A DNA stretch of 24,162 nucleotides from positions 1 through 24,162 of the forward strand of contig JBHIBM010000001.1 of NCBI GenBank assembly GCA_046759085.1, given 5' to 3'. This DNA is from Candidatus Zixiibacteriota bacterium (GTDB taxonomy: Bacteria; Zixibacteria; MSB-5A5; DG-27). Position 1 is the first letter of the stretch; every line of letters starts with the position of its first letter. The notes below the pieces were generated by a model that made no database searches, had not been told where the DNA came from, and saw only the letters and a list, made by a program, of their open reading frames with translations. Below are positions 12,012 to 20,586 of the stretch, piece by piece. A program made the position numbers and the translations under genes.

Positions 12012-12080
12012 AATATAGATTACTGAGCTTTTATGGGTGGGGTTTACATTTTCAATAGCTTTAACCAGGGGAATGCGAAG

Positions 12081-14048
12081 ATGTTAAGAAATCTTTTAGT
12101 AGTAACGGTTTTGGTCAACCTCGGTCTGTGCCTCCAGATCGGTGCCACCACTTATTATGTTTCTCCAGACGGGGAGAACAGCTACAATGGGCTTTCGCCG
12201 GATAGCGCCTGGAGAAACGTTTCTTGTGCTACCCTTCAGGTTGGGAATAATCCCGCAGACCCCGACACCGTCTTGGTCTATCCAGGCCTGTACGACATGG
12301 AGGCAGGCGAGGTCTTTCCGGTGCGGGTGCGGAGTTACACCACCTTAGCTGGGCTGGATACCGGTGTCGTTCTCTCTGCAGCGGACACTGTCAACGTTGA
12401 GGTCATCCGCATCAAACGACACCAACTGGTTCAGATCGAAAACTTAGAGATAACCGCTGGAGACGGGGGCATAAACGCTCAAACTTGCTCCAAGCTGATA
12501 ATAAAGGATAATTATATTCACCACAACCAGCGTCGCAGTCTTCTGGACAACCCCTTCGGTGGTGGCATCGCGGTTCTGGGATCTGGAGAGGTTACGATTA
12601 AGGGCAATCTCATCAGTGAGAACGAGATTTCTCAGACTCAGAGGGTATATGCCGGGGGCGGGTTAGGAGTTATTCAAAGCGACCTGGTCACAATAGACAG
12701 CAACACGGTGTCCTCCAACACTGTTGAGTATGCCGGGATAGCCTGCGGTGGGGGAATGGCCCTGGCTGAATGCGATCTGGTGAATATCACCGACAACACC
12801 GTAGATAGTAACCTGGTGAAAAGCATTACTGACAAGGCCGAGTCCTCCGGCGGAGGTCTCTATCTGACGGGGTGTCGAGAGCTCTTAATCCAGGGGAACA
12901 GTATACGCCAGAATGCTCTCTACCGGTGGACGCCTCAAGATACCTGCCTCAGCCATGGTGGTGGAATCTACATCGTCGACGGTTCTGGTCAGGCTACCCT
13001 AAGCGAGAATCTGATTTCAGGCAACTACTCTATCGGCAACTGTGAGTTCGCCCGGGGCGATGGCGGAGGGGTAAAGGTAGATAACGCCTCTGCCATCTTC
13101 ATCGACAACACCATTGTCGGCAACGAGGCTGAGTATGGAATCGGGGCCGATGGTTGGGGGGGAGGGGTATGTGTGGATTCTCAATCTGTATGTTCCTTCT
13201 CTGGCAACCGTATATACGGTAACCGTGCTGGCAGTGGGGGAGGCATCGGCGTCTACTTCCCGGACAGTTTGATGGTCGGTGGTTCTCCTGGCCACGGGAA
13301 TGATCTCTACGATAACGTTGCCGAGAGGGGTGATGACCTCTGGAGATACTATTACGCCCCGCCCGAGACCATCCTCGCCACTTTCAACTACTTCGGGGGA
13401 GAGCCCAACGAAAACCGGGTTTATCCCTTCGAATATTGGGATGTCGGTTTCTGGCGCGATAACCCCATCGATGAGAACGAACCTCCGCGGATAATGGACT
13501 ACTCTCCCGCCTTTGTGGAGACGACGCTGGACATTGGTGACACGCTCCTTTTCTGGGTCGAAGTCCTGGATTACGACGGAGACTCAACCTTGACTTCGTG
13601 GCTTTTGGACGGTGAGCACCTTGCGGATGGTGACAGCTTCCTCTTCATAGCTGACTCTCAGTATGCGGGCTACGATACCCTCCGGGCTGCGGTGGCTGAC
13701 TTTGAGGATACCACCAGTCATTACTGGTATATGCAGGTGGGGCCCACCTCGGTGCCATTTGGAGAGGGAGACAAAAACCTCCCGGAGCAGTTTGCCCTTT
13801 TAGACAACTACCCGAATCCGTTTAACGCCTCAACGGTGATAAGATACCAACTGCCGCGGCCTTGTCCTGTTCGCCTGGAGATATTCGACATCTTGGGGCG
13901 AAAAGTCACCACTCTGGTGGACCGGAGAGAGAAAGCTGGCCATAAGTCTGCGGTCTGGTATGCTGAAGATGTTGCCACTGGTTTTTACTTTTGCAGGTTG
14001 ACTGCGGGCGACTTCAGTGCCACGGAGAGAATGGTGCTTTTGAAGTAG
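12081..14048 (+). CDS. Secreted parallel beta-helix protein with T9SS-type CTD, paralogue B
   Basis: AGGGGAA RBS supports ATG 12081 (the track starts at 12033); signal peptide; same architecture as paralogue A; CTD LLDNYPNPFN...RMVLLK*. Confidence 0.87.
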   Translation: MLRNLLVVTVLVNLGLCLQIGATTYYVSPDGENSYNGLSPDSAWRNVSCATLQVGNNPADPDTVLVYPGLYDMEAGEVFPVRVRSYTTLAGLDTGVVLSAADTVNVEVIRIKRHQLVQIENLEITAGDGGINAQTCSKLIIKDNYIHHNQRRSLLDNPFGGGIAVLGSGEVTIKGNLISENEISQTQRVYAGGGLGVIQSDLVTIDSNTVSSNTVEYAGIACGGGMALAECDLVNITDNTVDSNLVKSITDKAESSGGGLYLTGCRELLIQGNSIRQNALYRWTPQDTCLSHGGGIYIVDGSGQATLSENLISGNYSIGNCEFARGDGGGVKVDNASAIFIDNTIVGNEAEYGIGADGWGGGVCVDSQSVCSFSGNRIYGNRAGSGGGIGVYFPDSLMVGGSPGHGNDLYDNVAERGDDLWRYYYAPPETILATFNYFGGEPNENRVYPFEYWDVGFWRDNPIDENEPPRIMDYSPAFVETTLDIGDTLLFWVEVLDYDGDSTLTSWLLDGEHLADGDSFLFIADSQYAGYDTLRAAVADFEDTTSHYWYMQVGPTSVPFGEGDKNLPEQFALLDNYPNPFNASTVIRYQLPRPCPVRLEIFDILGRKVTTLVDRREKAGHKSAVWYAEDVATGFYFCRLTAGDFSATERMVLLK

Positions 14049-14061
14049 GGGGAGATTCAAG

Positions 14062-16011
14062 ATGTTTACGAGGTTCTTAGGGGGAGCGATATTGAGCCTA
14101 CTGCTGTTCGTTCCGAGCTTTGCTACTGTCTACTATGTTTCTACAGAGGGGGACAATGGCAATAACGGGCTTTCTCCGGACAGTGCCTGGCGGAATGTCT
14201 CATATGCCACCCAGCAGGTGGGGAATGACCCCGGTGACCCTGACACCGTCTTTGTCTATCCAGGTCTTTACGATTCTGGGGCTGGGGAGACCTTTCCGAT
14301 AGATGTACGGAGCTACACTTCGCTCATTGGGCTTGACAGCATAGCTGTCCTTTCGGGAGACAGCTATGATTGGCCGGTAGTCAGCGTCTCTGAAGAGAGG
14401 GAGATACTGATCGAGACCCTTGAGATAAGGAATGGCGGTGGAGGCATCCAAGCGGAAAACTGCACCACGTTGGTTCTATACAGGAATCATATTCATGACA
14501 ACAAGCGCTACAAACCGAGGCTGAGTCTATACGGTGGCGGAATGAGAATAGCGGAATGCAAGAGCGTCAGCATACTGGATGTCGTTGCGGAGTCCAACGA
14601 AGTGCTTCTTGAAGATGCTACCATCGACGCAGGGGGAGGAGGCATAGCAGCTGCAGGAAGTGACTCAATCCTGATAGATGGTTGCACGATCTCTGGCAAT
14701 ATCGTTTCAACAAAGGGCGACGCTATGGGAGGGGGACTATACATGTCTGGAGTTGATTCTCTGTATGTCATCGGAAACGTTATAGAAGACAATCTGGCAA
14801 AGTCGATAGGCCGCCCTTGGCCGGAGGCTTACGGAGGTGGCGTATATCTCAACGCCTGTGGGGAGACAAGCATTAGTGGGAACGTCGTATCCGGCAATGA
14901 AGCCGAAGCTTTCGCACAGGAGGAGTGCGGTGGTGCGGGCGGTGGAGTCTACTTGTCCGCCTGCCGCACGACGGTGGCGTTTTCGAGCAATCTTATCTCG
15001 CACAACGAAATGGATGTATCCTGTCGGACCGGCCATGGCGATGGCGGCGGCGTCTATGTTGGCAACTGCCCAATCATATTCACGGACAACATTATCAACG
15101 ATAACGGTGCTGACTATGGTGGCGGGGTATTTGCGCCCAATTCGAAGACATGTTCTTTCTTCCGCAATCAGATACATGCTAATCATGCATACGATGGTGG
15201 TGGCATCGGTGCTGTGACAGCCTCGCCGGAATCGCTAGTTGTCGGTGGTTCGCCTGGTTGGGGAAATGACATATATGGAAACACTGCTGGCGCAGGCGAC
15301 GAGCTTCGTAGATACTCTCCGATATACGGGATGGCTTCAGCGAATTTCAACTACTTCGATGGTGAGCCGGACGAAAGCAAGGTCTATCCGGCCCACGGTT
15401 GGGATACCCGTTTCTGGCGGCTGAACCCCATAGGCGAGAATGAGCCCCCGCATATCATTGATTACTTTCCTGCCGTTGCTGAGACCACTCTCAACATCGG
15501 TGACTCTCTTCTCTTCTGGGTGGATGTGCTCGATTACGATGGTGACACTACTTCGAGCTGGTGGCTCTTAAATGGAACCCAAGTCGCCGATGGTGACAGC
15601 TTCTTGTTCATTGCGGATTCTCAGTATGCCGGTTATGATACCATTCAGGCTGCGGTGACAGATTACATAGACACTACCACTCAGGATTGGCTGGTTTTTG
15701 TGGGTCAGACGGGAGTGACATCTGAGGAGACAGAAAGGAATCTGCCTAGACAGTTTGCTCTTCGGGACAATTACCCGAATCCGTTCAATGCTTCGACTAT
15801 CATAAGATATGAGCTTCCTCGAGACTGCCATGTTTGTTTGGAGATCTTCGACCTTTTGGGGCGAAAGGCGGCTACGCTTGTGAATGGAAAAGAGAAGGCG
15901 GGCTACAAGCTGGTCATCTGGAATGCGAGGACAGCCGCTACAGGATTTTACTTCTATAGACTATCTGCTGGAGATTTCTCTGATACCAAGAAGATGGTGT
16001 TGTTGAAATAA
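14062..16011 (+). CDS. Secreted parallel beta-helix protein with T9SS-type CTD, paralogue C
   Basis: GGGGGAG RBS; 13 bp after paralogue B; signal peptide; GGG(I/V)..N repeats; CTD LRDNYPNPFN...KMVLLK*. Confidence 0.87.
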   Translation: MFTRFLGGAILSLLLFVPSFATVYYVSTEGDNGNNGLSPDSAWRNVSYATQQVGNDPGDPDTVFVYPGLYDSGAGETFPIDVRSYTSLIGLDSIAVLSGDSYDWPVVSVSEEREILIETLEIRNGGGGIQAENCTTLVLYRNHIHDNKRYKPRLSLYGGGMRIAECKSVSILDVVAESNEVLLEDATIDAGGGGIAAAGSDSILIDGCTISGNIVSTKGDAMGGGLYMSGVDSLYVIGNVIEDNLAKSIGRPWPEAYGGGVYLNACGETSISGNVVSGNEAEAFAQEECGGAGGGVYLSACRTTVAFSSNLISHNEMDVSCRTGHGDGGGVYVGNCPIIFTDNIINDNGADYGGGVFAPNSKTCSFFRNQIHANHAYDGGGIGAVTASPESLVVGGSPGWGNDIYGNTAGAGDELRRYSPIYGMASANFNYFDGEPDESKVYPAHGWDTRFWRLNPIGENEPPHIIDYFPAVAETTLNIGDSLLFWVDVLDYDGDTTSSWWLLNGTQVADGDSFLFIADSQYAGYDTIQAAVTDYIDTTTQDWLVFVGQTGVTSEETERNLPRQFALRDNYPNPFNASTIIRYELPRDCHVCLEIFDLLGRKAATLVNGKEKAGYKLVIWNARTAATGFYFYRLSAGDFSDTKKMVLLK

Positions 16012-16120: not shown

Positions 16121-19051
16121 TTACTGCCATCCCTTGCTGAAACCGATTATCCAGCGGAACTTCCAGCTACCCTCCCCGGAGGGATGACTGATCCATAGCG
16201 GAAAATCAACTCTGAAGATGAAGAATCTGAAGCCTATCCCGAAATCGGATTTGACAGTCTTGATGTGAAGCTTGCTCCATCCTGCATACACATTGCCTAC
16301 ATCAAGGAAAAGATACGCCGGCAGATAGGGGAGGCTGTTCTCTAACGACATAGTCGTAATCATCTTCCCCTTCAGATGTCTTCCGAAATAGCCCCTCAAG
16401 TTTCCGTCACCCCAGAGGTGCCACCTCTCTTGAGGCGAAAGCTCTCCGGTAGATTCCCAGGTGAAACCGAGCATGCCCTCGGGAATCAGTTTCCCGGAGA
16501 GGAAGAAATACTCCTGTAAGGGCATATCTCCCCAGCCATAACCGCCATACAATCGCAGTTCGGTCTTGATTTTCTGTGACCAGCGGTAATAACTCTGTGA
16601 TTCCAATGACCATTTCCCAAATTGATAAATATCGTCATCGAGGTCTTTAGCGAGGGTCACGGTGCTCTTGATATTGCCGCCGTAACGGAGGCATCGCTCT
16701 TGGAAACTGTATGCCAAATCCACGCCGCTGTACTGGCCCAGGCTGAAATCCCGGGGGTCCTGATCCGAGATCGATTTCACCTGGCGATGCTGTAACGACA
16801 CCTCGAAAGTGTGTGTTGGCCCACGGAGGAGTTTTTCTCTTTTCTCGAAGCTCACTCCCGCATATGCACGGGAATAATCCCAGGATCTAGACCATCCCAA
16901 GGATAGTTTTGAGAAAGATCCCCAGAAACCGAGCGGAGTCTGGTAGCTACCGCTGTGTCTCAAGGTCTTTTTCCCGGATGAGTATATCGGAGCGAAGCTC
17001 CATTGATGTTTTCCCAAGACGGGGCCGGCCAAGATGAACTGTCGCCCCATAAGAAGACCGCCAACTTGCAACCGTGTGCTGGGGCTGTAGAATATATATG
17101 GGATAAAGAAAAGCTGGTAGGTATCGAATGAGGGCTTGTCGAAGAAGAGGCCGAAAGAATACTTCCTCGGTTTGCAGTTGTTCCAACGATAGTAATCCAG
17201 GATTTTCTTTTCAGGATCGACTGCAACGCGCTTTGTTTTTTCCCAGCTGTGGAACGTTATGGTGTTCTCTGGCTCCCTTCCGTTCCAGAAGAAGCGGTAT
17301 TCTCTTCCACTATCGGTATAAGAAACCACCTCCACGGGCATGACAATCGGTTCATTTCTTCTGAGGGTGATTTCGTTTCGATAGCCACCCCCAGGATTCT
17401 CCTCGTGGGGCGACCTTCTTATCTTTCTGCTCTTAAGGCCTGTGACTTCATAGTCACATCGCTTCGTGGTCGTCAACCACTGCTTGAAAAACCAATCCAA
17501 CTCCTCTCCGCTGACCTCCTCGCAAACCGAGACGAAGTCCTCGATCCTGGGATGTTTGAACATGTATCGCTGGTAGTAGGTCTTCATCGCGGTGTCAAAG
17601 GTGCCATGGCCTAAAAGGTCTCTAAGCATATACAGAATCAAGGCGCCCTTGTAGCATGCCAGCTGGTGTGTATACATTCCCTCTGTGTACTCATATGCAG
17701 GCTTCGACAGAATCTCCTCACGTTGGGCAGAGGCGTACATATAGTAATAAACATTTGCGACATAGTTGTCGTCGAACTCCGGGAAATAGGGAAGGTCGAA
17801 GGGGAGTTCGAGAAGAGAGTAATCCTCTCCGTATTTCTCCTCTAAGTATCTAAGCTCGCAGAAGGTGGCGAAGGCTTCATCGAGCCAGGGGGAGTCGATT
17901 TCATTGTTGCCCAAAACTCCATAGAACCACTGCTGCGCGAGAAGGCGTGCCACTACCAGCTCCAGCAATTTCGTATGAGAGGGGAGATCGCTAGGAATGA
18001 CTATCAAGCTCGGTGCTGCCATGCCTGGGGTCATAAAATCGGCGCCGTCAACGATTGTCAATCTTCTGTAAGGGTAGGGCCCGAACCATTCCCGGTACAA
18101 TTCCATTGCCTCTCTCGTATATGTGCCGATCTCCCTCATCTTTTTCTCATCCTGAGGCAGCAATAGAAGATCGATTTGGATGCTGTTGGTGTATTCCCTC
18201 TTCAATAGATAGTCTGGGCTTGCAGTCCAAGCGAAATCGTGGACGTTCTCGGCATGAAAAACCAGGGTCTTGTAACCATATTGAGATGCAGGATCGTCAT
18301 AAGGATGTTTGACTTGACGGCGTTGGCGTTTGGACAGTCTTGAGTAACGGTCTAAAGGATCCAGTCTTCTGAGCTCATCAGGAGGGCCGATCAGTTCCCC
18401 GGTTGCGCCGACTATGCATTCCCGCGGCAGGGTGATAGCCACATCGAAGGTACCGAACTCTCCGTAGAAACCGGGGATGAAATGATAACCATCAGGGTGC
18501 CAGCCCCGCTGGTCATACACGACCATCTTCGGATACCAATGAGCTATCTGATAGCGATTTCCTTTATGACCGAGCCGGTCAAATAGATATGGCAATTTGA
18601 GCAGGAAATCTATCTCACATGTGACGGTGTCACCAGGCTGAATCGGAACCGGCAGGTTCACCCTCATCTCAGTACCGGCGGCCTCAGGGATTAAAGATCG
18701 GCCGTTGCACTCGAGAGAGATTATCTCAATGTAGCCTCGGTCTTCGGGGGATGAGAAATAGAGGTCGCTCTTCCCTGCTTTGTATTGCTCCCTGGCGAAT
18801 TCGGTGTCGCGGTCTTTGTAAGCATTCGGATATAGGTGGAACCAGACGTAATTCAAAGTGTCAGGCGAGTTGTTGACGTAAACGACTATTTCATTACCCA
18901 TCAGGGTATGTTCTTCGGTGTCTAAAAGGACATCAATACGGTACGACACCACTTGTTGCCAGGAATGGCCGAGCTCGAAAGGAAAAAGCGCGAAGATTAT
19001 CAGGGTCAAATAGTAGAGGTAATACTGACGCATGGGCGCAAGAGAGCTCAT
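16121..19051 (-). CDS. M1 aminopeptidase homologue with a degenerate zinc site, fused to a C-terminal Omp85-like beta-barrel
   Basis: M1 scaffold motifs YVNNSPDTL, FHLYPNA, WYPK..VYD, AENVHDFAW, WLDE.F, YKG and V.VDP...LD...NN. HEXXH reads RLLAQ. The last ~345 aa are beta-stranded with LRGY and SDFGIGFRF..RVDFP. Confidence 0.8.
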   Translation of the reverse strand: MSSLAPMRQYYLYYLTLIIFALFPFELGHSWQQVVSYRIDVLLDTEEHTLMGNEIVVYVNNSPDTLNYVWFHLYPNAYKDRDTEFAREQYKAGKSDLYFSSPEDRGYIEIISLECNGRSLIPEAAGTEMRVNLPVPIQPGDTVTCEIDFLLKLPYLFDRLGHKGNRYQIAHWYPKMVVYDQRGWHPDGYHFIPGFYGEFGTFDVAITLPRECIVGATGELIGPPDELRRLDPLDRYSRLSKRQRRQVKHPYDDPASQYGYKTLVFHAENVHDFAWTASPDYLLKREYTNSIQIDLLLLPQDEKKMREIGTYTREAMELYREWFGPYPYRRLTIVDGADFMTPGMAAPSLIVIPSDLPSHTKLLELVVARLLAQQWFYGVLGNNEIDSPWLDEAFATFCELRYLEEKYGEDYSLLELPFDLPYFPEFDDNYVANVYYYMYASAQREEILSKPAYEYTEGMYTHQLACYKGALILYMLRDLLGHGTFDTAMKTYYQRYMFKHPRIEDFVSVCEEVSGEELDWFFKQWLTTTKRCDYEVTGLKSRKIRRSPHEENPGGGYRNEITLRRNEPIVMPVEVVSYTDSGREYRFFWNGREPENTITFHSWEKTKRVAVDPEKKILDYYRWNNCKPRKYSFGLFFDKPSFDTYQLFFIPYIFYSPSTRLQVGGLLMGRQFILAGPVLGKHQWSFAPIYSSGKKTLRHSGSYQTPLGFWGSFSKLSLGWSRSWDYSRAYAGVSFEKREKLLRGPTHTFEVSLQHRQVKSISDQDPRDFSLGQYSGVDLAYSFQERCLRYGGNIKSTVTLAKDLDDDIYQFGKWSLESQSYYRWSQKIKTELRLYGGYGWGDMPLQEYFFLSGKLIPEGMLGFTWESTGELSPQERWHLWGDGNLRGYFGRHLKGKMITTMSLENSLPYLPAYLFLDVGNVYAGWSKLHIKTVKSDFGIGFRFFIFRVDFPLWISHPSGEGSWKFRWIIGFSKGWQ

Positions 19052-19911
19052 CTCAGAGAGGATGGTTGCTCCGCTGGCTGTTCAATTCGTCTGGCATCTT
19101 CGGGGATCCGAAGTTCAAAGAAGCTGTCAGGAATCTCTACGTTAATCATTTCTTGACGCAGTTTTATTCTAATTCTGAACCCCTTGGCCGGGCAAAGCAG
19201 CGTGATTATCTTAGGACGCCAGCGACCATCCATTCTATGGAAATCATAGTAACTGATCCAGAGGTCGTAAGATTCGTCACGATGTCGCCAGTGGCATTTG
19301 GCCACCGTGAGGGTGGCGGGGTTTACCCAGAATTTCTTATCCCAGACGGTATCCGCCATCTCGTACAGATAGAAACCCTCTTGCCTGCCGATGAATCTGC
19401 TGTCGTTTCGGTCGAACCCGAATTTCCCCATTGAGAACTGAATGGTGCTTACAAGGTCAAATCTCTGCTCGCCAAATTCTACAAACCTCCCCTCCTGTAG
19501 GTTTTGCTCGAAGTACGAGTTCGTGAATGGAGAGAAGACCCTGACGGTATCATTACGCAGAACTCCCTTGGCCACATCAATCCCCAGAATCATCTCGAGT
19601 GTGAAGGCAAGCTCCGAGGCTTCACGATAATACAACTCCATACCGAAAGAGAGGTTCATCTTTTCGCTGTGAAGATCTACGTCTATGTCCCCGGCGTATG
19701 TGTTGATGTGTGCATCTTGCTCCGCAAGGAGAGCGACCACTTCCTCAGGGCTTCTGACCTTCGGGGGCGGCTTTATGATCTTCCGGGGGGCGCAGGAGGC
19801 GAAGATCAATAGTGACGCTAAGGTGCAGATTGTAACGGGGAAAAGTGGGAGCTTTGAACCGGACCACACGTTTGGAGATGGGGTTTGTGATTGGGTGATA
19901 CGCCGTTCCAA
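19048..19911 (-). CDS. Lipoprotein, DUF4292-like (LolA/LolB-like fold suspected)
   Basis: Lipobox FASC followed by a K/P-rich linker; beta-rich domain ending F.L.IP.DA..I; stop overlaps the next start (ATGA). Start codon uncertain. Confidence 0.65.
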   Translation of the reverse strand: MERRITQSQTPSPNVWSGSKLPLFPVTICTLASLLIFASCAPRKIIKPPPKVRSPEEVVALLAEQDAHINTYAGDIDVDLHSEKMNLSFGMELYYREASELAFTLEMILGIDVAKGVLRNDTVRVFSPFTNSYFEQNLQEGRFVEFGEQRFDLVSTIQFSMGKFGFDRNDSRFIGRQEGFYLYEMADTVWDKKFWVNPATLTVAKCHWRHRDESYDLWISYYDFHRMDGRWRPKIITLLCPAKGFRIRIKLRQEMINVEIPDSFFELRIPEDARRIEQPAEQPSSLR

Positions 19912-19938: not shown

Positions 19939-20586
19939 CTACAATGGCAATCCCGTGAACAGGTAACCGAAAAGCCTCACGAACGGAGAAAATATGTACG
20001 CAAAGAGATTAACTCCGAATATATATCCGCCCATGATTATCCCCACCAAGACTAGCGGACCGTAGCGTTCCATTCGATAGTAGAATCTCTCTTCCTGGGG
20101 AGGCAGGAGCCCGAAGAGGATCTTGGAGCCGTCCAGAGGGGGAATCGGGAACATATTGAATATCGCCAGAATGATATTGATCTGAACCGCGAATATCAAC
20201 ATCCTCAGGAACACCCCCACAAAAGGTGTCTGGAAATCCAGGCCCCCGCCGGTGCCAAGATAGACGCGCAAGATGAGACCGAAGAAGAACGCAGAAAGCA
20301 GGTTGGCAAGAGGTCCGGCGAAGGATACCCAGATCATGTCCCCTTTGGGATCGCGAAGGTTGTAGGGATTTACCGGCACCGGGCGGGCCCAGCCGAAACC
20401 GACGAAGACTAACATTATCGAACCGAGGATGTCCAGATGAACCAGAGGGTTCAACGAAAGCCGACCCATCATCTTGGCGGTGGGGTCTCCACGACGATAA
20501 GCTATGTAGCCGTGAGAGAACTCGTGAATGGTGATGGCGAAAAGAAAGCCGGGAACCATTATGGCTATTTGCTCGAGGCCATACAT
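19939..20586 (-). CDS. Site-2 protease family (M50) intramembrane zinc protease, YwhC-like
   Basis: HEFSHG (HEXXH), GRLSLNPL.H.D, FGWARPVPVNP and FNMFPIPPLDG motifs. Confidence 0.95.
   Translation of the reverse strand: MYGLEQIAIMVPGFLFAITIHEFSHGYIAYRRGDPTAKMMGRLSLNPLVHLDILGSIMLVFVGFGWARPVPVNPYNLRDPKGDMIWVSFAGPLANLLSAFFFGLILRVYLGTGGGLDFQTPFVGVFLRMLIFAVQINIILAIFNMFPIPPLDGSKILFGLLPPQEERFYYRMERYGPLVLVGIIMGGYIFGVNLFAYIFSPFVRLFGYLFTGLPL

Follow-up and report, generated by a model that had tools for sequence, protein, structure and literature searches.

Omp85 proteins are central to outer-membrane biogenesis, and only a few of their designs have been studied, namely BamA, TamA, TpsB, and PlpD. Their N-termini face the periplasm. 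Heinz and Lithgow (2014) distinguished ten Omp85 classes, including the 'Metallo' (PF00149), WD40-like, and noNterm classes, and periplasmic roles have been proposed for the classes that lack POTRA domains (PMC4104836). An M1 class is not among them, and the words 'peptidase' and 'aminopeptidase' are absent from the text of that survey (PMC4104836). The patatin-like Omp85 proteins PlpD and FplA consist of an enzyme-fold N-terminal domain and a C-terminal 16-strand Omp85 barrel, and the enzyme domain of PlpD is now reported to be periplasmic (PMC11116518). Here, we describe a likewise organized protein encoded on a 24,162-nucleotide stretch of DNA (the window) from Candidatus Zixiibacteriota bacterium (assembly GCA_046759085.1, contig JBHIBM010000001.1, positions 1 to 24,162). 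The gene, located at 16121..19051 on the reverse strand, encodes a fusion of an M1 aminopeptidase module that has lost its zinc site with an Omp85-type barrel. We consider a periplasmic, non-catalytic M1 scaffold on an Omp85 barrel to be the most likely reading of this protein, with a probability of about 0.62.

PlpD carries an active patatin lipase domain and one POTRA domain, whereas the window fusion carries an M1 module with a dead site and no POTRA domain; patatin and POTRA are both absent here, and the likeness is one of design only. In having an N-terminal part that is not a POTRA array, the fusion resembles the noNterm, WD40, and 'Metallo' classes (PMC4104836). BamA, TamA, and Sam50 share with it the barrel fold, the RGY motif of loop 6, and the FxDxG motif of strand 13. 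The insertases BamA and TamA possess three to five POTRA domains, whereas the fusion has none, and insertase activity is neither shown nor implied for it. That an M1 fold can be retained as a binding or scaffolding element has a precedent in TAF2, whose M1-like domain is catalytically inactive. TAF2, a component of TFIID with an M1 aminopeptidase-like domain (PMC4309443), is eukaryotic, nuclear, and without a membrane barrel, and is not specifically related to the window fusion.

The gene and its domains are arranged as follows.

16121..19051 (−), whole gene, intact open reading frame of 976 amino acids plus stop: signal peptide, M1 domains I–III (predicted inactive), Omp85 barrel
18965..19051 (−), N-terminal signal peptide, residues 1 to ~29, with a predicted hydrophobic helix (6–29) and no cysteine
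18182..18964 (−), M1 domain I (N-terminal β domain), residues 30–290, from Foldseek matches to IRAP, ERAP1, and PSA and from DSSP
17462..18181 (−), M1 catalytic (thermolysin-like) domain, residues 291–530, predicted inactive, from Pfam PF01433 and phmmer matches to PDB sequences including ERAP2 and IRAP
17177..17461 (−), all-β sandwich (M1 domain III-like) and short linker, residues 531–625, not POTRA, from DSSP and Pfam
16124..17176 (−), Omp85-type 16-strand β-barrel, residues 626–976, from AlphaFold2 (AF2), Foldseek, and VIA-align

The open reading frame is free of internal stops over its 976 codons; the NCBI gene call starts at Met7 and gives 970 amino acids. As its signal peptide contains no cysteine, the protein is predicted to be a Sec substrate and not a lipoprotein, and a WQQ motif that is conserved in the fusion family begins at residue 31. 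Residues ~30 to 625 align with IRAP, ERAP1, ERAP2, and PSA over ~625–650 columns (Foldseek, E = 3e-25). Membership of the M1 family is likewise evident from a Peptidase_M1 (PF01433) match to residues 312–525 (E = 2e-16, above the Pfam cut-off) and from phmmer matches to PDB sequences down to E = 1e-6. The protein lacks the helical domain IV found in ordinary M1 enzymes. A full-length AF2 model, built with an 88-sequence alignment, reached a predicted local distance difference test score (pLDDT) of 91.4 and a predicted template modelling score of 0.88. In this model, segment 534–611 comprises six strands and zero helices (DSSP), and residues 531–611 are predicted to be all-β, lacking the β-α-α-β-β unit of a POTRA domain. 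Pfam gave no POTRA match anywhere in the protein. A linker of ~30 residues (612–643) leads into the barrel. The architecture is thus one of M1 domains I–III on an Omp85 barrel without POTRA. An earlier reading of the sequence without database searches had proposed a dead M1 module on an Omp85-type barrel without an evident POTRA-like segment, and had expected modelling and Foldseek to return M1 domains plus a 16-strand barrel; Pfam, Foldseek, the model, and motif reading agree with it on each of these points.

The C-terminal 359 residues, modelled on their own, form 16 barrel strands (AF2, pLDDT 90.8), and the top Foldseek matches of this model are TamA and BamA (E = 1e-8). Alignment to BamA, TamA, and Sam50 by VIA-align yielded Z-scores of 18–20 over 270–300 residues and covered the entire barrel, at a sequence identity of only 13–16%. 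Residues 29–357 of the barrel model correspond to BamA 423–808, and the short linker ahead of strand 1 superposes on the POTRA5 region of BamA (351–423). Two motifs of the Omp85 superfamily are recognizable.

16388..16402 (−), NLRGY, loop-6 (V/I/L)RG(Y/F) motif, residues 884–888, in the loop 843–896 between strands 11 and 12
16295..16309 (−), FLDVG, FxDxG motif on strand 13, residues 915–919, in strand 912–922

The long loop carrying NLRGY connects strand 11 (829–842) to strand 12 (897–906). The sequence-only reading had recognized the loop-6 motif GNLRGY correctly and misplaced its start: GNLRGY spans 16405–16388, and the interval it gave, 16399–16388, covers LRGY only. Across the family, G887 is invariant and Y888 is conserved at 94%, while conservation reaches at least 94% for F915 and D917 and at least 90% for G919. 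Among homologous C-termini, 23 of 71 match PF01103 on their own (best E = 1.2e-13), and several relatives of the fusion carry a precomputed PF01103 match.

In the M1 module, the residues that define the active site have been replaced at several positions.

17933..17947 (−), RLLAQ replacing HEXXH, residues 369–373 (codons cgc ctt ctc gcg cag), both zinc-binding His and the general-base Glu lost
18011..18025 (−), GMAAP replacing the exopeptidase motif GMEYP/GxMEN, residues 343–347, with E345 and Y346 replaced
17876..17878 (−), E392, retained third zinc ligand, with exactly 18 residues between it and position 373
17651..17653 (−), Y467, retained family-invariant Tyr, next to the YxKG tyrosine of M1 enzymes in the alignment
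18470..18475 (−), P193-G194 where the GEFYG loop has a family-invariant G-E, from the codons and the alignment to relatives with an intact site

The phmmer alignment sets VIAHELAHQWF of ERAP2 opposite VVARLLAQQWF and LNEGFA of ERAP2 opposite LDEAFA, which identifies R369-L-L-A-Q373 as the former HEXXH site. RLLAQ at this site with its exact spacing, GMAAP, and the codons and coordinates of both had already been described from the sequence, and all were borne out by phmmer and codon reading. Y467 is paired with the family-invariant tyrosine by MAFFT, while phmmer instead sets the ERAP2 tyrosine opposite C466; a one-residue deletion adjoins Y467 in the clade of fusions without the site (the dead clade). 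In 110 relatives with an intact site (live relatives), the same positions read H/E/H/E/Y in 100% of cases. The glutamate of GxMEN, at the position of E345, holds the free amino group of the substrate in M1 enzymes. E194 is present in 110 of 110 live relatives and in 141 of 142 live cluster representatives (see below), and is lost in 7 of 8 dead ones. From this coupling to the live or dead state, E194 is probably part of the substrate site, and it may be the domain-I carboxylate that helps to hold the substrate amino group, as in other M1 enzymes. Mapping it onto the known N-domain glutamate of PepN/ERAP1 failed, as the full-length profile–PDB alignments start at profile position ~259. With both histidines, the general-base glutamate, the glutamate and tyrosine of the exopeptidase motif, and E194 all replaced, the protein should be unable to act as a zinc aminopeptidase; judged by its sequence, it is a non-peptidase homologue of the M1 family and not an active member.

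The replacements are not uniform within the dead clade. Residues vary at 369 (R/Y/H), 370 (L/Q), and 373 (Q/H/R), as well as at 345 and 194, and the former zinc site reads RLLAQ, RLVAH, YQVAR, or HQVAR across two subclades, which looks like drift and not like a new conserved ligand site. The peptide N-terminus-binding cavity that the sequence-only reading had expected to persist therefore finds no support, with E345 and E194 gone and the old zinc-site residues drifting. Positions conserved at 90% or more in live relatives fare differently in the two halves of the protein: in domain I and the catalytic domain, 13 of 95 are replaced in the dead clade and 82 of 95 are kept, against a single replacement among 28 such positions of the sandwich and barrel. 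All site-covering members of the 90%-identity cluster, which stem from independent NCBI, JGI, ENA, and Logan assemblies of hydrothermal-vent and marine-sediment metagenomes, read ARL[LV]AQ and GMAAP, so that an assembly error is excluded.

The dead clade is a small branch of a large, unstudied, and mostly catalytically intact fusion family. A word-indexed search returned 1965 matches, of which the best 120 are nearly all 890–1020 amino acids long and aligned end to end. An exhaustive profile search at E ≤ 1e-30 gave 5768 cluster representatives (50% identity), a number that may include barrel-less M1 proteins; the best 150 of these representatives are all full-length fusions over the full profile. 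HEXXH...E is intact in 110 of 120 relatives and in 142 of 151 representatives (~94%). In the AlphaFold DB and the ESM Atlas, several clusters have the same overall shape, with template modelling scores of 0.68–0.86 (0.77–0.86 in the ESM Atlas), and these include Bacteroidota clusters with thousands of members that are named 'aminopeptidase'. The live M1-Omp85 fusions, annotated as 'M1 family metallopeptidase' and found in Zixibacteria, KSB1, TA06, Krumholzibacteriota, and Bacteroidota, have the same end-to-end architecture and are homologous to the window protein over 96–100% of its length at 31–41% identity. They keep GxMEYP, HEXXH, the third-ligand glutamate, and E194, whereas the dead clade has lost GxMEYP, HEXXH, and E194. 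A literature search found no paper on M1-Omp85 fusions. In one KSB1-type relative, a gene for a DUF5686-Omp85 protein (L005/L006:1-2130) precedes the live M1-Omp85 gene by 3 kb.

A maximum-likelihood tree of 116 full-length relatives places the dead clade (P0001, P0002, P0004, P0005) as a monophyletic group with support 100, and its sister, also with support 100, is the live pair P0007/P0008, of which P0007 is labelled Zixibacteria. Every relative at 62% identity or more is without HEXXH. The loss of the site thus had a single origin in this clade. The window genome (89% complete) holds a single copy of the fusion, and among 151 genomes sampled from the phylum the dead version occurs only in its own genus. 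Since it is a single copy, stands in the same operon as its live sister, and is dead only in its own genus, the fusion is an orthologue that was inactivated in place and not a spare duplicate.

The order of the changes can be read from the codons. The live sister has CAT-GAG-...-CAC (H, E, H) at the site. In one dead subclade, residue 369 is H (as in L002) or Y, residue 370 is Q (CAG), and residue 373 is R; in the window subclade, residue 369 is R, residue 370 is L (CTG/CTT), and residue 373 is Q, apart from P0003, which retains H373. Most parsimoniously, this suggests a common ancestor with H-Q-x-x-H, in which the general base was the first to go (E370Q), followed by separate decay of the zinc ligands in the two subclades. 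Four further changes, Y346A, G193P, H166R, and D278S, are fixed in 5 of 5 members and lie on the stem of the clade. Inactivation has also recurred elsewhere in the family, with a minimum of 4–6 events overall. The tree of close relatives contains at least four losses (this clade, P0058, P0117, and P0114/P0115/P0121), and a tree of 141 cluster representatives again contains at least four (this clade, P0115, P0182/P0199/P0238, and P0197); the fragments P0194 and P0272 are dead as well. The M1-barrel fusion is retained in every dead lineage sampled. In the family representatives P0194 and P0197, only the general-base glutamate has been lost (HQLGH and HGLGH), and both histidines and the third ligand are kept. 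Judged by these motifs, the two may represent early stages of the decay path proposed for the dead clade.

Selection was assessed by the Nei-Gojobori method for the two close pairs in which omega is usable, as the synonymous divergence (dS) is saturated across subclades. Between the window and L001 (89% identical, dS 0.23), omega is 0.20 in domain I, 0.19 in the catalytic domain, 0.17 in the sandwich, and 0.20 in the barrel; between L002 and L003, the respective values are 0.18, 0.31, 0.12, and 0.19. Neighbouring genes in the same two pairs range from 0.07 to 0.40. The M1 fold is still constrained by purifying selection, since omega is low in all four domains and similar to that of the neighbouring genes. 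These data bear out two further points of the earlier reading: sequencing error or simple decay is an unlikely source of the changes, given ARL[LV]AQ and GMAAP in independent assemblies and an omega of ~0.2, and the loss of HEXXH is conserved in a clade under purifying selection.

Upstream of the fusion gene lie two genes with which it shares a conserved order.

19048..19911 (−), DUF4292 (LolA/LolB-like) probable lipoprotein, directly upstream of the fusion gene, from Pfam PF14125 (E = 1.5e-10) and a lipobox-like FASC
19939..20586 (−), small M50 (site-2-type) membrane metalloprotease, from Pfam PF02163, with HEFSH and LDG motifs intact

The stop codon of the DUF4292 gene overlaps the start codon of the fusion (ATGA), and DUF4292 orthologues give a weak PF17131 match. 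The operon order, uvrC, a metallo-β-lactamase-fold gene, PHP, M50, DUF4292, and the fusion, is common to the live sister. The segment M50-DUF4292-fusion is kept in L002, L003, and L004 and is present in the nearest live relatives (P0007, P0008, G066), and a DUF4292 homologue also lies upstream in L015. None of the conserved neighbours, an M50 protease and a probable DUF4292 lipoprotein, is a secretion gene, and the ATGA coupling together with this gene order hints at an envelope module. The role suggested in the earlier reading, a substrate receptor or chaperone in a non-canonical outer-membrane export or assembly system, would be tentative at best, given these neighbours, a separate BamA in the genome, and the periplasmic enzyme domain of PlpD. 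As a family-wide partner, DUF4292 was rejected: phmmer finds it upstream only in the fusion's own clade, L004, and L015, and did not find it beside the other fetched fusion loci (L005–L008 and the phylum-sample loci). A search of sequencing runs for evidence of expression turned up DNA metagenomes only.

We propose that a Sec signal peptide would export the fusion protein, whose C-terminal 16-strand barrel would sit in the outer membrane. M1 domains I–III would stand where Omp85 proteins have their POTRA arm and M1 enzymes their helical domain IV, and the rigid module would most likely be attached to the barrel on its periplasmic side. The retained job would be non-catalytic, either as a barrel function for which the M1 fold serves as a scaffold or docking platform, or through an M1 fold that binds without cleaving. 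That the module is periplasmic and inactive, and what kind of role it has, we infer from several lines of evidence. A periplasmic M1 module is expected because Omp85 N-termini are periplasmic, the linker aligns with POTRA5, and the enzyme domain of PlpD is periplasmic. A non-catalytic role is suggested by the recurrent independent losses in each of the two samples, after which the fusion was always kept.

Several observations weigh against this proposal. Its claims on activity, bound zinc, location in the membrane, and topology are all predictions. The protein's own match to the Omp85 family in Pfam (PF01103, residues 810–970) lies below the threshold, at 15.5 versus 24 bits, and a sequence profile of the barrel compared with PDB sequences gave only a chance match (E = 0.11) and no relative. 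The barrel sequence is too divergent for a profile match in the PDB, so a fold search was needed, and membership of the Omp85 superfamily is supported by predicted fold, motifs, and relatives. E392, E364, and Y467 are conserved in 5 of 5 members of the dead clade, and their retention may leave room for some residual ligand binding. The partnership with M50 and DUF4292 is kept only in the near lineage and may be inherited gene order. Across dead subclades, the catalytic domain is 8–13 points less identical than the barrel, and in live pairs of like overall divergence the difference between catalytic domain and barrel averages +9 points; the dead-clade pattern is found in 8 of 136 live pairs (6%), all from one clade contrast. 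The M1 part may accordingly be partly relaxed after inactivation, an indication that is suggestive only.

This last pattern is the starting point of the strongest rival explanation, which we nevertheless regard as unlikely: the M1 module might be a functionless relic, with only the barrel needed and the N-terminal 600 residues kept since a misfolded or truncated appendage harms barrel biogenesis. The catalytic domain is indeed the least conserved part of the protein in the dead clade and the most conserved in live relatives, the former active-site residues drift between subclades, and inactivation recurs across the family. However, the omega values of 0.19–0.31 in the N-terminal and catalytic domains are no higher than those of the barrel or neighbouring genes, and most family-invariant structural positions of the M1 fold (the 82 of 95 noted above) are kept. 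No sampled lineage has deleted the M1 module while keeping the barrel, in a search for such lineages that was not exhaustive.

A broader version of the preferred reading, that of a periplasmic, non-catalytic M1 scaffold, is more tentative still. M1-Omp85 fusions could constitute an undescribed functional class of Omp85 proteins, in which an M1 module, and not POTRA domains, acts as the periplasmic working arm. The core job of such proteins would be independent of cleavage, for example docking envelope clients or handing them over with a LolA/LolB-like lipoprotein, and catalysis would be a repeatedly lost accessory, making the dead clade a natural catalytic knockout.

A surface-exposed M1 module, carried through or around the barrel in a type V-like manner and acting as a non-catalytic binder or adhesin, as the export-type proposal of the sequence-only reading would imply, is doubtful. 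The layout of an N-terminal globular domain followed by a C-terminal barrel is passenger-like, the ~30-residue linker (612–643) is long enough to span the membrane, and PlpD was once classed as type Vd secretion. However, loop 6 occupies the lumen of Omp85 barrels, and this protein retains both RGY and FxDxG. The linker ahead of the barrel overlies the POTRA5 region of BamA, which is periplasmic, and there is no known route for a folded 600-residue M1 module through a 16-strand barrel. The enzyme domain of PlpD has been located experimentally in the periplasm (PMC11116518), which argues against export of the M1 part. The genome, moreover, exports surface proteins via C-terminal domains of the type IX secretion system (T9SS), including another M1 paralogue.

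Continued hydrolase activity through other residues, such as E392, E364, and Y467 with a different metal or water, is very unlikely. These three residues are conserved in 5 of 5 clade members, but both histidine ligands, the general base, and both substrate-anchoring glutamates are gone, and the replacements at 369, 370, and 373 vary within the clade. No M1 enzyme that functions in the absence of HEXXH is known to us. A decaying pseudogene, or an artefact of sequencing or assembly, for which nothing speaks beyond the lost motifs, is refuted by a 976-codon frame preserved across many independent vent and sediment assemblies, by an omega of ~0.2, and by the conserved operon position and ATGA coupling.

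Under the preferred reading of a non-catalytic scaffold, the new element is an Omp85 protein whose non-POTRA, enzyme-derived arm is a pseudoenzyme; non-POTRA Omp85 arms as such were already known. The zinc site has been destroyed, apparently starting with the general base, yet the entire 976-residue protein is kept under selection within its operon, which implies that at least part of the family's function is independent of peptide cleavage. The M1-Omp85 design is widespread, including the thousands of Bacteroidota members. The dead clade offers a ready-made catalytic-null orthologue that can be set against live ones sharing 41% identity and the same gene context. Its practical value will be modest until topology and partners are determined, and the loss described here is confined to one small lineage.

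The window genome encodes further Omp85 proteins, distributed over contigs C187, C264, C253, C43, and C92 (L042, L044, L045, L046, and L047) and all cut by contig ends. They comprise a BamA-like gene with at least four POTRA domains and an Omp85 barrel on C187, a patatin-POTRA-Omp85 (PlpD-like) gene on C264, two PD40/WD40 propeller-Omp85 fusions, and another POTRA-Omp85 gene. With a BamA, a PlpD-like gene, and two WD40-Omp85 fusions encoded alongside it, the M1 fusion is one of several specialised Omp85 paralogues and not the insertase of the genome.

Two other M1 paralogues are present as well. One of them (C249:109-1971 on the reverse strand, L011) is a barrel-less protein of 620 amino acids with a signal peptide and intact GMELP, HEVVH, and E, and it ends just where the barrel of the fusion would start. 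A second, contig-cut paralogue on C8 (L012:2-1765) combines an M1 part with He_PIG and a T9SS C-terminal sorting domain. In the same phylum, the barrel-less paralogues L022 (G093) and L027 (G124), ~625 amino acids in length, keep HEXXH...E and have G-A-A-S-P in place of GxMEYP. Finally, two tandem β-helix proteins of 671 and 649 amino acids with T9SS Por_Secre_tail domains are encoded at 12033–16011 on the forward strand, convergent to the fusion gene. The 649-residue protein shares 52% identity with its counterpart in L001 at a dS of 1.9, and thus diverges much faster than its neighbours.

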